Source of the DNA: a virus
Taxonomy: Duplodnaviria > Heunggongvirae > Uroviricota > Caudoviricetes
DNA length: 37,921 nt
Virus record (IMG/VR): IMGVR_UViG_2713896908_000005
Reading direction: 5' to 3' (one strand)
Both the position numbers and the translations under genes were made by a program. This document shows, one piece after another, positions 10,274-14,821 of the stretch. Within the stretch, counting starts at the first letter, position 1; every line of letters starts with the position of its first letter. The notes beneath the pieces are model-generated. The model was given only the letters and a program-made list of their open reading frames with translations, did no database searches and was not told the origin of the DNA.

Positions 10274-11557
10274 CTATGACCGCGAAAAGTAGTGATGGTT
10301 CAGTTCTTTTGCAAAATAGTGCTTACGTTTAACCCAGATAAAACCATCAGCTTTAGAAATGATTGCAACATCTATGGGGCCTCCCACTGTTTCAGTATCA
10401 TCGGAGACCTTGCGCTTGAAAGCGGTTAAATTTACTAATGATTCAGCCATATAAGCTAAATCTTGCTTGGGTAAAAACTCGATCATATTTACGACTTTGT
10501 CAACATAGTTTTCTCGGACAAAGCTATCAATACGCCCCTTGCAATCGGAAACAGTTCTGCGCACTACATCAACTATAGCATCCTTAGCTCCTTCGATATC
10601 TGAAGTAGGCACCAAATCTGTGATTACTGAATCAATACCGTCAAGTAAATCGACGATAGAACGTTGATACTCAGCATGAAGATTTTGGATAAGATGTGAA
10701 CTAGCTCCTTGCATGAAAGCAGAAACTTCATCCTCTTGCGCAAAAGGAGTCACGCCGCAATTAGGAGTGATGCAGCACTTGTCAGCATCTGTAGTTTTCC
10801 TGATTTTATCATTAAAGAAGCCACAAACTTCATATGATAATACTTTAGGGTAATAGTCTTTATCGCCATAACCTGCAATCACAATCCCAGAGACGGAACC
10901 GATATCACTTTGCTTGCATATCATAGCTGCCAAAACATCACTAACTACTTTTGTCAACTGTGGAGTTATGGATATTGGATCAAAGTCACTAAACTTTTGA
11001 GCAATGATGCGTTGGGCAACTGATGAAGCATAGGTTTGGGCTGCTTGTTCATCATCCGGAGTAAAACCATCAAAGTAATTAATATCAGATAATTTTGTAA
11101 GGAGATCGTTGCAATAATTTGTAAGGTCTGTAACAAATTGATTCTTATTGAAGTTAACGAAATATGTTGGTTCGAGACCTTCAGAAAAAGCATCAACAAG
11201 CATGCTGAATACAATCTCGCTCAGGAAGTGATAAAGATGAGCCTCACGCATACCTGGTGTGATGATTGATTTAGCCGACTGTAGATAATTGAAGAAATCC
11301 TCAGCATATTCCTCCAAAGAGTCAAAACATTTAGAGCCTAAATCCTTTCTATAAGCCTTGATGATAAGCTCCCATGGAGCTGTGCAGAGATCACCAGTTC
11401 CATATACCATCAAACCTACAGGATGATGTTTAGTCAGAGCGAAAAGCTTTTCAGCGCCATTATAGATTTTATGTTTGCCGCCTCCAGAAATTGTTACAGC
11501 TGAATCTGCGGCTAAAGCTACTGCGGTCTTGTTAAATACGGCTATTTCTGCTGTCAT
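10274..11557 (-). CDS. uncharacterised 427-aa cargo protein on the opposite strand between Q and the lysis cassette
   Basis: Long minus-strand ORF, markedly AT-rich relative to flanking phage genes; own sigma70-like promoter and a terminator hairpin downstream; no signal peptide, no Walker A, no family recognised by eye. Confidence 0.8.
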   Translation of the reverse strand: MTAEIAVFNKTAVALAADSAVTISGGGKHKIYNGAEKLFALTKHHPVGLMVYGTGDLCTAPWELIIKAYRKDLGSKCFDSLEEYAEDFFNYLQSAKSIITPGMREAHLYHFLSEIVFSMLVDAFSEGLEPTYFVNFNKNQFVTDLTNYCNDLLTKLSDINYFDGFTPDDEQAAQTYASSVAQRIIAQKFSDFDPISITPQLTKVVSDVLAAMICKQSDIGSVSGIVIAGYGDKDYYPKVLSYEVCGFFNDKIRKTTDADKCCITPNCGVTPFAQEDEVSAFMQGASSHLIQNLHAEYQRSIVDLLDGIDSVITDLVPTSDIEGAKDAIVDVVRRTVSDCKGRIDSFVRENYVDKVVNMIEFLPKQDLAYMAESLVNLTAFKRKVSDDTETVGGPIDVAIISKADGFIWVKRKHYFAKELNHHYFSRS

Positions 11558-11839: not shown

Positions 11840-12166
11840 ATGCCTCATAACCCAAATACCTGGCTGGAGTTGGTCCAGAGCTGGTGGCGTGGAGACACAC
11901 CGCTGGGCGCAGTGATTATGTCGATTGTTATGGCTGGTTTGCGCATTGCCTATTTTGGCGGTGGTGGCGGCTGGAAGCGAAAAACACTCGAAATTCTACT
12001 CTGTGGCGCTCTGACGCTGACTTTTGCATCCGCTCTTGAGTATGTCGGATGGCCTAAATCACTATCTGTTGCCATTGGTGGTGGGGTGGGGCTGATCGGT
12101 GTTGATGCTATTCGTGGGGCTGCAATGAGAGTAATCGGTAACAAGTTTGGTGGCTCTAAGGAGTAA
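11840..12166 (+). CDS. holin (three predicted TM helices)
   Basis: 108 aa; hydrophobic segments LGAVIMSIVMAGLRIAYF, LEILLCGALTLTFASAL, LSVAIGGGVGLIGVDAI and a charged C-terminus; immediately precedes the endolysin. Confidence 0.65.
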   Translation: MPHNPNTWLELVQSWWRGDTPLGAVIMSIVMAGLRIAYFGGGGGWKRKTLEILLCGALTLTFASALEYVGWPKSLSVAIGGGVGLIGVDAIRGAAMRVIGNKFGGSKE

Positions 12167-12169
12167 TTT

Positions 12170-12646
12170 ATGCAGGTACTAAATTCCCAGCGTAAAGCTT
12201 TCCTCGATATGGTGGCATGGTCAGAAGGAACGGATAACGGGCGACAACCGACACGTAACCACGGTTATGATGTTATTGTTGGCGGCGAACTGTTCACTGA
12301 TTACTCCGATCACCCTCGCAAACTTGTCACGCTAAACCCCAAACTCAAATCAACAGCCGCCGGGCGTTATCAGCTTCTTTCACGCTGGTGGGATGCTTAC
12401 CGTAAACAGCTTGGTTTGAAAGACTTCTCCCCCAAAAGCCAGGACGCAGTGGCATTGCAGCAGATTAAAGATCGTGGCGCTTTACCGATGATTGATCGCG
12501 GTGATATCCGTCAGGCTATCGATCGTTGCAGCAATATCTGGGCGTCATTACCCGGCGCTGGTTACGGTCAGTATGAACATAAAATCGGTGACCTGATTGC
12601 CCGATTCAAAGAGGCTGGCGGGGTGGTAAATGACGTTGAGCTATAA
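12170..12646 (+). CDS. R: endolysin, lambda R-type lytic transglycosylase
   Basis: 158 aa; NSQRKAFLDMVAWSEGTDNGRQPTRNHGYDVIVGGELFTDYSDHPRK closely matches lambda R as recalled. Confidence 0.9.
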   Translation: MQVLNSQRKAFLDMVAWSEGTDNGRQPTRNHGYDVIVGGELFTDYSDHPRKLVTLNPKLKSTAAGRYQLLSRWWDAYRKQLGLKDFSPKSQDAVALQQIKDRGALPMIDRGDIRQAIDRCSNIWASLPGAGYGQYEHKIGDLIARFKEAGGVVNDVEL

Positions 12647-13091
12647 GCTGGTTATCGTTGCTTTCTTCGTTACTGTCATTGGTTCTTTCATCTGTTCAGT
12701 GAATCGTTACCACAATAAAGCCATTGAATACAAAATGCAGCGTGATGAGAATGCTATGGCATTAGATTCGGCTATGGCGACCATCTTTGATATGCAGAAG
12801 CGTCAACGTGACGTAGCAGAACTTGACGCCAGATACACAAAGGAGCTTGCTGATGCTAATGCGACTATCGAAAGTCTCCGTGCTGATGTTTCTTCTGGGC
12901 GTAAGCGCCTGCAAGTCGCCGCCACCTGTGCAAAATCAACGACCAGAGCCAGCGGCATGGGCGATGGAGAAAGCCCAGGACTTACAGCAGATGCTGAATT
13001 CAATTATTACCGTCTCCGAAGTGGAATCGACAGGATAACCGCACAGGTTAATTACCTACAGGAATACATCAGAACTCAATGCATGAATTAA
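12630..13091 (+). CDS. Rz: i-spanin Rz
   Basis: 153 aa; N-terminal TM helix, central QRDVAELDARYTKELADA matches lambda Rz as recalled; overlaps R stop. Confidence 0.85.
   Translation: MTLSYKLVIVAFFVTVIGSFICSVNRYHNKAIEYKMQRDENAMALDSAMATIFDMQKRQRDVAELDARYTKELADANATIESLRADVSSGRKRLQVAATCAKSTTRASGMGDGESPGLTADAEFNYYRLRSGIDRITAQVNYLQEYIRTQCMN
12853..13038 (+). CDS. Rz1: o-spanin Rz1 (lipoprotein embedded in +1 frame of Rz)
   Basis: Start at ATG 12853 with AGGAG SD; signal peptide ending in a lipobox-like LGVSAC, followed by proline-rich KSPPPVQNQRPEPAAW; fully embedded in Rz. Confidence 0.7.
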   Translation: MLMRLSKVSVLMFLLGVSACKSPPPVQNQRPEPAAWAMEKAQDLQQMLNSIITVSEVESTG

Positions 13092-13168
13092 AAGAGGCAG
13101 ATTGATCGTGTTTTCGAAGTGTTATACCACGCCCGTTCTGTTAATTTGGCAAAATCTGTTCTGATGCA

Positions 13169-13273
13169 ATGAGTATCGAAAGATTTATTGGACTGGTTGC
13201 TTTGGTTATCACTGTTATCGCTGGAGTTGTTGGCCTAGGGCGTATCCGTGGCACTAGTAAAAGAAGAGGTTAA
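13169..13273 (+). CDS. candidate 34-aa hydrophobic peptide
   Basis: MSIERFIGLVALVITVIAGVVGLGRIRGTSKRRG: one TM helix plus basic tail; below ORF-track cutoff; no clear SD; speculative. Confidence 0.2.
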   Translation: MSIERFIGLVALVITVIAGVVGLGRIRGTSKRRG

Positions 13274-13646
13274 AACTGCTCTGTTATACACTGAAGTTAA
13301 CGCAGCGGCTAAGCACTCAGCAGCAGGACACCGTGTAGAGGCAACGGAAGAGGCCAGAAATATACAGCAGACTATTAACCATATTCCTGGTGACTCTGTT
13401 GAGCGCGGTATGCATAAGAAATACAAACGTACAATTTGAAGTGGTATATTTTTCTTGTTAGTAGATGAATATAATATACCACACAGAATACGATATAATT
13501 ATTGCTCATGCTTACCTAAATATGAAAAACAATAAAGTTATAAGTAGACAAGTGTTTTGTTACTTTTAATAATTGATGTGATGTATATATTAAGATTGAA
13601 AAATTTAATCATTCTTTCCACATATAAATTAAGTGGTTCCCTTAGC

Positions 13647-13675
13647 TTGTCATTTTTGATGATAAGTGAGAGAAT
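13647..13675 (+). promoter_or_regulatory. putative promoter of the three-gene AT-rich cassette
   Basis: TTGTCA (13647-13652) -N17- GAGAAT (13670-13675), preceded by TG (extended -10-like); 25 nt upstream of ATG 13701. Confidence 0.3.
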
Positions 13676-13700
13676 ATGAACATTATATGATGGAGATAAT

Positions 13701-14012
13701 ATGTCAAACATAAAAATCAAACAAGCTATTGAAAAGATTGCGGAGTTCAGAGCAGCATCTGCTGCGATGGCTGATGCTCACATGGTTCTTATTACAGATC
13801 TATTGAACTCAATTGAGGATATCCGCAAAAACTCTGGTGATAATCTCTCTGAGTTTGAAAAAGGACAGGTTGCTCTCTACATAAAAATTAGCCCAGTTGT
13901 GAAAAATGGAATTTCGAGTATTGAAAAATATAATGAGTCTTTAAGTTCAGACTATGTTGAGGCTATGAACTCCTTATCTAAAATTGCGGGAGGGAATTCA
14001 AATGTCGATTGA
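13701..14012 (+). CDS. cassette gene A: hypothetical 103-aa acidic helical protein
   Basis: ATG with GGAGA SD; AT-rich; stop overlaps start of gene B by 11 nt. Confidence 0.6.
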   Translation: MSNIKIKQAIEKIAEFRAASAAMADAHMVLITDLLNSIEDIRKNSGDNLSEFEKGQVALYIKISPVVKNGISSIEKYNESLSSDYVEAMNSLSKIAGGNSNVD

Positions 14013-14388
14013 AGATGTTGGAAGCATCCTTGATAGATTAAAAGTAGCCAGGATCGAAAATAAAAAAATTGAAGAGTCAGCTGGAAAAGCAGAGGAAAAT
14101 GCTGTTAACTCTAAGCATACTGATGGTAAAACACGAAGCGCCTTAACTATTACGTTTCTCTGGTTCTTTTTTTTCCTTCTTATTTTTAGCTGTCTTTTTG
14201 TTCTTTGGTATAATAATTCTGTTGTGAATTGGGCTTTAGAGTTAAAGAGCAAAGGTGTTGATGATTACGTTCAATATTTAAAGCCACTCGAGCTGGAAAA
14301 GGTATTGTCAATAATGATTACTGCCCTTGGTACTTCATTAGGATTTATAATTGGGTATTATTTTAAGGATAAAGAAAATCATTCTTAA
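14002..14388 (+). CDS. cassette gene B: hypothetical 128-aa membrane protein with two predicted TM helices
   Basis: Start taken at ATG 14002 (GGGAGGG SD) rather than 13984; hydrophobic segments ALTITFLWFFFFLLIFSCLFVLWY and VLSIMITALGTSLGFIIGYYF. Confidence 0.6.
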   Translation: MSIEDVGSILDRLKVARIENKKIEESAGKAEENAVNSKHTDGKTRSALTITFLWFFFFLLIFSCLFVLWYNNSVVNWALELKSKGVDDYVQYLKPLELEKVLSIMITALGTSLGFIIGYYFKDKENHS

Positions 14389-14433
14389 TATAGAGTTATC
14401 TCTAAAGATAACGAATTTTAATAGGAGGGCAGA

Positions 14434-14736
14434 ATGTCTGAACTGAATTATGAAGCAATAGGTCGCTGCAAAATCCTTAATGAAAAGATCAAAGATCTTC
14501 ATGCTGAACGAATGAAAGCTATTGGTGATTTACGTACTGCTGTCTATGCCCTTCATCAGAAAGGGAATGTAAACCTCATCCCACCAGAAATTGTTGAATT
14601 CAACCCCCAATCGCTTACATCCCTTGTAGAGAAGATTGGTCACTATGATGGTGAGCTGATGCGAGCTGTACATGAGTACAACAACTGGTGTGTAGAAGCA
14701 GGCGAGAAACCCGTAAAACTTATAAAGCTAGACTGA
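14434..14736 (+). CDS. cassette gene C: hypothetical 100-aa protein
   Basis: ATG with GGAGGG SD; AT-rich; followed by terminator hairpin. Confidence 0.6.
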   Translation: MSELNYEAIGRCKILNEKIKDLHAERMKAIGDLRTAVYALHQKGNVNLIPPEIVEFNPQSLTSLVEKIGHYDGELMRAVHEYNNWCVEAGEKPVKLIKLD

Positions 14737-14761
14737 AACAACAAATTTATGCAAATCATTA

Positions 14762-14785
14762 GCCTCGCACATGCGGGGCTTTTTT
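14762..14785 (+). terminator. intrinsic terminator after the three-gene cassette
   Basis: GCCTCG (14762-14767) cacatg CGGGGC (14774-14779) then TTTTTT (14780-14785). Confidence 0.5.
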
Positions 14786-14821
14786 ATGCGCACCACACAT
14801 GCACATCAAAGAGAGTCTTCA

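Follow-up and report, generated by a model that had tools for sequence, protein, structure and literature searches.

Prophage morons of unknown function are common. Juhala and co-workers and Hendrix and co-workers are said to have defined 'morons', in 2000, for HK97/lambda-like phages, and bor of phage lambda is a moron located in the Rz-cos interval. We analysed the interval between the lysis and terminase genes of IMG/VR record IMGVR_UViG_2713896908_000005, a temperate phage genome with an HK97-type head and a contractile tail (hereafter the window, i.e., the whole stretch of 37,921 nucleotides). Three open reading frames (ORFs), A, B and C, lie there between the lysis genes and the HNH, TerS and TerL genes, and the initial annotation had grouped them into one three-gene unit. 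The slot holds two independent, stacked morons of an E. coli/E. albertii prophage, the A-B gene pair and gene C with its terminator. What is less ordinary is that A-B represents a strictly paired, undescribed superfamily with an invariant motif and clean boundaries, which lives both as a phage moron and as a passenger of IS1595-family insertion sequences (ISs).

Several described two-gene systems resemble the A-B pair. CptA/CptB (YgfX/YgfY), SpoIISA/SpoIISB and GhoT/GhoS are membrane-toxin toxin-antitoxin systems, in which an upstream gene for a soluble antidote is followed by a gene for a small toxin with several transmembrane (TM) helices, in compact and often overlapping operons on mobile DNA. 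In RexA/RexB of lambda and gp30/gp31 of mycobacteriophage Butters, a soluble partner is combined with a membrane protein which, when a phage attacks, collapses the function of the membrane. RexA and RexB far exceed A and B in size, and RexB has four TM helices where B has two. The gp30/gp31 pair is presented as a two-component prophage defence (bioRxiv 10.1101/2023.01.03.522681).

As in morons, A-B is an extra unit between functional modules, downstream of Rz, with a low G+C content, a presence that varies among near-identical phages, and, in about half of the family loci, a terminator of its own. It differs from them in being a two-gene operon with an obligate partner, in having only a candidate promoter and, in the window, in lacking a strong terminator right after B. 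A-B also resembles the three toxin-antitoxin systems, since A and B are small, adjacent and co-translated, and occur jointly, on mobile DNA, in 45/45 close and 8/8 remote loci, and it is prophage-encoded like RexA/RexB and gp30/gp31. However, the TM hairpin of B is C-terminal, behind an N-terminal extension predicted to be cytoplasmic, A is modelled as an all-helical hairpin and not as a GhoS-like RNase fold, and the pair lies in the late region and not, as RexAB, in the immunity region. Neither protein is a member of the CptAB, GhoST or SpoIISAB families (no Pfam or NCBIfam match at threshold), and neither reached the gathering score of a Pfam family or matched a PADLOC model, hence no Rex model was matched.

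The A-B gene pair and the gene C block

The coordinates that the initial annotation gave for the three ORFs were borne out, and each of them is a real gene that matches a PHROG family of unknown function. The features of the interval are listed below.

13701..14012, + strand: gene A, 103 aa; phrog_21707 at E 4e-48
14002..14388, + strand: gene B, 128 aa from an ATG (identical start in RefSeq); phrog_20796 at E 8e-69
14167..14174, + strand: T8 homopolymer in B (FFFF codons of the first TM helix, TM1); T7 in the intact allele of relatives
14395..14412, + strand: weak AT hairpin after B, -6 kcal/mol, z -1.3
14419/14420: mosaic boundary found by blastn, right end of the A-B block, 14 nt before the start of C
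14434..14736, + strand: gene C, 100 aa; phrog_4827 at E 8e-44
14761..14785, + strand: intrinsic terminator closing the C block (14761-14780, 8-bp stem with 6 GC pairs, followed by a T-run), free energy -16.9 kcal/mol, z -3.5

A GGAG-type Shine-Dalgarno sequence precedes each of the three starts and A and B overlap by 11 nt, as first described, and the strong terminator after C was likewise found again.

Forty-six loci with B homologues were retrieved, 45 of which, counting the window, could be assessed. In all 45, an A-like ORF (89-163 aa) terminates at the start of B or runs into it (its end lying from -41 to +28 nt relative to that start), with overlaps of 8-23 nt in many of the related loci, and these upstream ORFs have the F/Y-R and YN.S...DY motifs of A (residues 16-17 and 77-85) in common. 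The translational coupling of a soluble partner to a membrane protein, proposed from the window, was supported for A and B. The distance matrices of A and B were correlated (Mantel r 0.64, 0/2000 permutations); this correlation and the joint hypervariability of both sequences would be expected if A recognises the cytoplasmic N-terminus of B, and plain linkage gives the same correlation. The pair has a G+C content of 0.35, compared with 0.49 for the remaining window, and of 0.31-0.39 in 35 related loci, where the flanks range from 0.36 to 0.55. A canonical terminator was present within 45 nt of the B stop codon in 16 of 33 A-B loci. In the window, the hairpin at 14395-14412 was the only structure found between B and C and does not make a convincing terminator. 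Since the first strong terminator follows C, the three genes are possibly co-transcribed in this phage.

The two-helix prediction for B was recovered by hydropathy analysis, with hydrophobic helices at about residues 48-72 (TM1) and 100-120 (TM2) behind a charged N-terminus of ~47 aa. Across homologues (105 clusters, in Enterobacterales, Vibrio and one record labelled Pseudomonas), this variable N-terminus leads into a conserved DGKTRS..LT stretch and TM1, the end of which is YN; some 27 aa of loop separate TM1 from TM2, which contains the invariant LGTSLGFIIGYYFK and leaves a C-terminal tail of only 7 residues. By the positive-inside rule, B is predicted to be an inner-membrane protein with both termini in the cytoplasm. 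Mean identity was 58% in the TM region of B (18 invariant columns), versus 20% in its N-terminus and 24% in A.

A and C had been described as small helical proteins, in agreement with AlphaFold2 (AF2) models of both (pLDDT, the predicted local distance difference test, ~79), which show helical hairpins (H2-45/H51-98 in A and H3-44/H58-85 in C). Mean pairwise identity of A across its family is only 19-24%. A single-sequence search with A returned its own cluster only and tblastn of A against phage records found nothing, whereas a profile search recovered 20 clusters; A evolves too fast for single-sequence searches and is recovered by synteny and profile methods only. In Providencia, Morganella and Moellerella, A carries an additional conserved hydrophobic segment at its N-terminus, which places A of the Providencia clade at the membrane. 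Paralogy of A and C, which are alike in hairpin shape, length (~100 aa) and an 'EYN' motif, was considered and rejected (hhalign probability 0.4%).

Gene C has a distribution of its own. It is a homologue (85% identity) of Sb55 of Salmonella phage ST64B, which is located after a KilA-N-like gene and before the HNH gene Sb56. Among 20 C-bearing loci, an HNH gene is directly downstream in 19 (TerL identity 37-98%), mostly at a spacing of 63-90 nt (~300 nt in loci L002 and L061), while A-B is upstream in only four. Conversely, tblastn of C among the A-B loci gave a match in four near-identical E. coli loci only. C occurs without A-B in ST64B, in M9-type E. coli strains and in 13 IMG/VR loci, and it is absent from the remaining A-B loci of Klebsiella, Serratia, Providencia, Vibrio and others. 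Many A-B phages have the HNH gene and not C; in Klebsiella phage P7641, for example, A-B is directly upstream of the HNH gene, and the terminases downstream of A-B in enterobacterial phages vary (P27-type TerS with HNH, or lambda GpA).

The limits of the C block are equally clear. In blastn comparisons with phages lacking A-B (L059, L004, L002 and L063; ST64B and M9-type), homology resumes exactly at 14420, and it ends just past the terminator, at 14796 (L002) or 14787 (L072). C and its terminator therefore form a separate mosaic block, 14420-14796, that moves as one piece. In L072 and L073, the homology is confined to this block, C being 87% identical and HNH only 58%. A nonsense mutation (CGA to TGA in codon 26, window position 14509, ~5508 in L014/L086) is present in L014 and L086; in this sub-lineage, annotators call the 74-aa remainder of C (P0303, 61 contigs), and L014 retains an intact B. 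C shows the constant adjacency to HNH expected of a packaging accessory gene, but neither the indispensability nor the co-evolution with the HNH-terminase genes. It follows that C with its terminator is an independent moron tied to HNH/terminase modules and not a third component of A-B. The grouping of three genes into one unit was thus not upheld: A and B are conserved as a pair, while C joins them in one lineage of near-identical E. coli/E. albertii prophages only.

Rfam also gave a match below threshold, to the sRNA STnc100, at 14698-14791 on the + strand (23.8 bits, E 0.017; gathering score 47). This stretch spans the 3' end of C together with the terminator, and the terminator hairpin alone probably accounts for the match.

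The accessory nature of the slot, already suspected from its position between spanin and HNH/terminase genes, is documented by a near-identical phage, L059 (IMGVR_UViG_2563366856_000002). Its holin (100% identity), endolysin (98%), C (99%), HNH (97%) and TerS (99%) match those of the window, but its Rz/Rz1 differs and A-B is replaced by a gene for a membrane protein of 160-177 aa with an N-terminal hydrophobic hairpin (L059 3317-3850; phrog_6169, unknown function). Of 5426 complete E. coli genomes, just 2 carry the full A-B-C cassette, and a megablast search with it against 50,697 phage records returned nothing. Natural lineages carry a frameshift in B or a nonsense codon in C, and neither gene is thus essential for lysis or packaging. 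With its deviant composition and its presence or absence among close phages, A-B is an insert of its own, a conserved gene pair that constitutes a moron in a variable slot, and both inserts are dispensable accessory cargo.

Relatives of the pair on phages and insertion sequences

The pair was found on several types of mobile DNA: prophages, IS1595 elements and one plasmid record. In Vibrio parahaemolyticus, A and B (120 aa and 151 aa) are the final two genes of a PM2/corticovirus-like prophage with a P2_N/P2_C coat protein (L051/L052 5658-6456), so that the module occurs in non-tailed phages too. In Serratia marcescens, what remains of a prophage at an e14-type icd site (L055 3293-6378) is limited to the A-B pair, a Mom-like/XF1762-family gene and a phrog_30351 gene.

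A wider search with the B profile against 1.84 billion representatives (E <= 1e-3) yielded, after clustering at 50% identity, 242 clusters. All members are small and share the layout of B and a C-terminal G..LGF..GYYFK helix; the loop is short or absent in the remote ones. An adjacent upstream gene was present in eight of eight sampled remote members, with a helical product of 70-95 aa where complete (one was cut by the contig end), and the sampled IS-borne B proteins matched phrog_20796, as does B of the window. No Pfam family was common to 60 remote members. A-B fusions were looked for among the longer proteins of the family, and their N-terminal extensions proved to be of low complexity and not A-like.

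Two types of IS-borne unit were recovered. In L079 and L080, the pair and a DDE_Tnp_IS1595 transposase are enclosed by 26-nt inverted repeats in a 1.67-kb unit (L079 1502-3176), which is identical in both loci and has different flanks. In L077 and L078, the pair and a DDE_Tnp_IS1595 transposase form a 1.69-kb unit with 33-nt inverted repeats (L077 3696-5381), which is inserted, on the opposite strand, into the early genes' region of a phage contig of 40 kb. The 8 bp on the right side of the copy in L079 (CATTTTTA) recur on the left side of the one in L080; a search for target-site duplications around the IS copies gave no clear assignment. IS1595-family members with passenger genes are listed by ISfinder as 'tIS', and the remote B-family pairs, located between terminal inverted repeats with the transposase, resemble such passengers. 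To our knowledge, the identity of IS1595 passengers as B-family pairs has not been previously described. The copy in the window differs in having neither transposase nor inverted repeats (no transposase ORF was found in or beside 13100-14800, and the copy is not enclosed in an IS1595 element) and in having probably been moved by recombination between phages.

Possible roles of the A-B pair

Profile searches of Pfam, PHROGs, NCBIfam and PADLOC gave no match of A, B or C to lysis, packaging or structural families, as the initial annotation had stated. Sequence and profile comparisons with Pfam, NCBIfam, PADLOC and PDB returned only sub-threshold or compositional matches, all of which were discarded (EcKL, bPH_10, 2TM_IV, TIGR01906, designed helical bundles, rhodopsin TM segments and, for C, stathmin). 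Foldseek found nothing in PDB at E <= 0.001 for A and C, only generic hairpins (MacA, ESCRT-III/Vipp1), and no description of the three proteins was found in literature searches.

Our preferred, though tentative, reading is that A-B is a toxin-antidote or abortive-infection-like moron, in which B may act as an autonomous membrane effector controlled by the fast-evolving A. A would be made in a fixed ratio with B through the overlapping reading frames, and would keep B inactive or regulate it by binding to its equally variable cytoplasmic N-terminal segment. B would act on the membrane, probably through oligomerisation of the Gly-rich TM2, perturbing it, and the pair would benefit or stabilise the element that carries it, be it a prophage or an IS1595-type insertion sequence. 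This reading draws on the universal pairing, the correlated distances of A and B, their unequal rates of change, the membrane-anchored A of one clade, the moron hallmarks, the replacement of A-B in L059, the IS1595 carriage, the retention of the pair in the degraded Serratia prophage and the separability of C. The sole indirect hint that B could be toxic and neutralised by A comes from a lineage with a truncated B and an intact A. In this lineage (L086-L088 5001-5225), B lacks one T of the T7 tract found in the intact allele and is frameshifted, giving a 74-aa product (P0047). The deletion could reflect neutral decay, counter-selection of B, or on/off switching based on slippage.

Somewhat more doubtful is the broader proposal that A-B founds a widespread, undescribed two-gene family of membrane effectors and antidotes (the 242 clusters sharing the TM2 motif), carried as phage morons after lysis genes and as IS1595 passengers, which would serve as an addiction or abortive-infection device with its specificity in the co-varying A and B N-terminus. 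If B is indeed an effector checked by A, a compact new family of about 700 bp would join the prophage-borne toxin-antidote and abortive-infection systems. It would also be a rare documented case of one module on both temperate phages and ISs, raising the question of what benefit an IS draws from it. Irrespective of function, the unit to be annotated is a pair and a separate gene and not a three-gene cassette, and the signature motif and the mosaic boundaries can be used for finding and classifying the B family.

Several observations weigh against the toxin-antidote reading. Toxicity, pore formation, defence and A-B binding are supported by neither experiment nor homology; in PADLOC-DB v2, A and C had no match and B only a sub-threshold one to 2TM_IV (E 0.0024, 15 bits, in the TM region). 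Unlike typical type II antitoxins, A has no recognisable DNA-binding domain. Only ~13% of contigs carry the truncated B allele (41, versus ~260 with intact alleles), which could be a product of neutral decay. The remote partners resemble A in size and predicted helicity, with no demonstrable homology to it (hhalign of the A family against IS-borne partners, probability 4%), and just two of the eight sampled remote members were IS-borne. Finally, in enterobacterial phages, A-B immediately follows lysis genes of many unrelated families, and in the Providencia clade the start of A overlaps the upstream lysis-cassette ORF, which is the o-spanin LysC in L053 and could mean a role linked to lysis.

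This last context is the basis of the main rival explanation, in which A-B would be a lysis accessory, expressed as part of the late operon behind the spanin genes, and would time holin, endolysin or spanin in an antiholin-like or envelope-acting manner. We consider it unlikely. In 35 loci, the three ORFs upstream of A are mainly endolysins of several families, Rz-like spanins of at least five PHROGs, and holins, with a gap to the upstream lysis-cassette ORF that goes down to -4 nt (L047 and L053). A broken spanin gene, described below, probably travelled into this phage along with the cassette. B, with its two TM helices and predicted N-in/C-in topology beside endolysin and spanin genes, is laid out like the class II holins and antiholins. 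However, it differs from these in its long acidic/basic N-terminal domain and in its 7-residue C-terminal tail, unlike the charged tails of holins, and its only match among the PHROGs and Pfam models, holin models included, was phrog_20796; no holin, antiholin or spanin profile matched A-B. The pair is also not a required part of the lysis cassette, as the phage has its own holin (11840-12166), the near-identical L059 lacks A-B, and B is frameshifted in L086-L088. No lysis genes lie near those of its relatives that sit inside IS1595 elements, in a polysaccharide locus or, on the opposite strand, in a phage early region, and A-B often has a terminator of its own and has a deviant G+C content. 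Universal pairing, the hypervariability of A and the B N-terminus compared with the conserved TM hairpin, a terminator in about half of the loci, and IS1595 carriage of remote relatives speak against a lysis accessory and in favour of a two-gene module that is autonomous, selfish or defensive.

Exclusion proteins such as HK97 gp15, P22 SieA and T4 Imm act at the inner membrane, each alone. B could be such a superinfection-exclusion protein, blocking DNA entry or receptor function at the inner membrane, with A as its chaperone or regulator; a small inner-membrane protein in a prophage cargo slot would suit this role, the alternative cargo of L059 is also a membrane protein, and the AT-rich leader upstream of A could hold a promoter active in the lysogen. 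We hold this to be quite unlikely, since B universally has a predicted cytoplasmic partner whereas known exclusion proteins of this type do not, and its most conserved part is the TM hairpin and not an exposed loop, which is short or absent in remote members. Carriage by ISs in unrelated low-G+C bacteria fits an activity independent of the host better than the blocking of a specific phage, and searches of Pfam, PHROGs and PADLOC revealed nothing homologous to SieA, Imm or gp15.

One remote pair sits among glycosyltransferase and polysaccharide genes, and no defence or toxin profile matched A-B. The pair might accordingly be a neutral or mildly beneficial membrane 'conversion' pair, involved in envelope stress or surface modification and neither toxic nor antiviral. 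This seems improbable: the single polysaccharide context is possibly incidental, and the strictness of the two-gene coupling, the hypervariability of the partner and the recurrent capture by phages and ISs are more typical of conflict or addiction modules.

That A, B and C are one three-component system, as their probable single transcript with the first strong terminator after C might suggest, is very hard to reconcile with the separate occurrence of C and A-B, the boundary at 14420, the unrelatedness of A and C in hhalign, and the nonsense codon of C beside an intact B in L014.

The small pore former Rip1 (ring-interacting pore 1) was also considered. Rip1 is prophage-encoded and triggered by terminase or portal rings (PMC13434031). 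Like the proteins studied here, it is small, helical and carried as prophage cargo next to terminase genes, and its defence, which disrupts the membrane and is of the abortive type, parallels the reading proposed for A-B; unlike A-B, it is a single protein. The only match, a Foldseek comparison of A with Rip1 (9oox_A), was non-significant (E 5.1), PDB profile and phmmer searches with A did not recover Rip1, and C had no match to 9oox_A among the top 50 Foldseek results or in PDB sequence and profile searches, so a Rip1-like role found no support for either protein. The lead was also followed via a review and the HK446 genome, in which the Rip1 ORF was not identified (PDB search of one candidate), again with no support.

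Neighbouring genes and other features of the window

The same prophage is present in E. coli NZ_CP178690, at tRNA-Thr beside proA, and recorded proteins identical to A, B and C come from Escherichia albertii. The genes and features flanking the two inserts in the window are the following.

11840-12166: holin, lambda-family, the phage's own holin gene
12170, start: GH24 endolysin
12630-13091: intact Rz/Rz1, Rz1 at 12823-13038 with the lipobox LLGVSAC
13170..13439, + strand: relic of a second, short i-spanin (phrog_1026 type); a frameshift divides it into a TM part of 34 aa (13170-13274) and 'orf63' (13248-13439, 63 aa, annotated 'hypothetical protein')
13440..13700, + strand: AT-rich non-coding leader of A-B, 261 nt, G+C 0.30 in 13400-13799
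14822, start: HNH gene
15290, start: TerS
15790, start: TerL

The relic was recognised from orf63, which matched phrog_1026 'Rz-like spanin' at E 4.6e-10; its TM part was read from the sequence in another frame, the frameshift lying near an A-run at ~13258-13262. Intact spanin homologues of the phrog_1026 type, of about 90 aa, are directly upstream of A-B in L007, L015-L017, L023, L028 and L049. Because the broken copy adjoins A-B in the window and intact ones precede it elsewhere, A-B probably came by recombination with a spanin-bearing phage.

The leader had been taken for an AT-rich promoter region. The low G+C content was confirmed (0.30-0.35 over 13400-14600, versus 0.50-0.58 in the flanks), but the promoter was not: promoter-like hexamers at 13545-13573 (10/12) and 13647-13675 (9/12, TG) belong to a set of sites that is not enriched over shuffled sequence (6 found, 6.5 expected). 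The leader had no Rfam match, and is a possible, candidate promoter region of A-B.

A further gene of the window, at 10274-11557 on the - strand, encodes a 427-aa protein between the Q antiterminator and the holin. It matched phrog_5990 (unknown function) and had no Pfam, NCBIfam, PADLOC or PDB match. In the otherwise similar prophage of NZ_CP178690, a KAP-family NTPase occupies the same position, so that 10274-11557 is a further variable cargo or defence slot.

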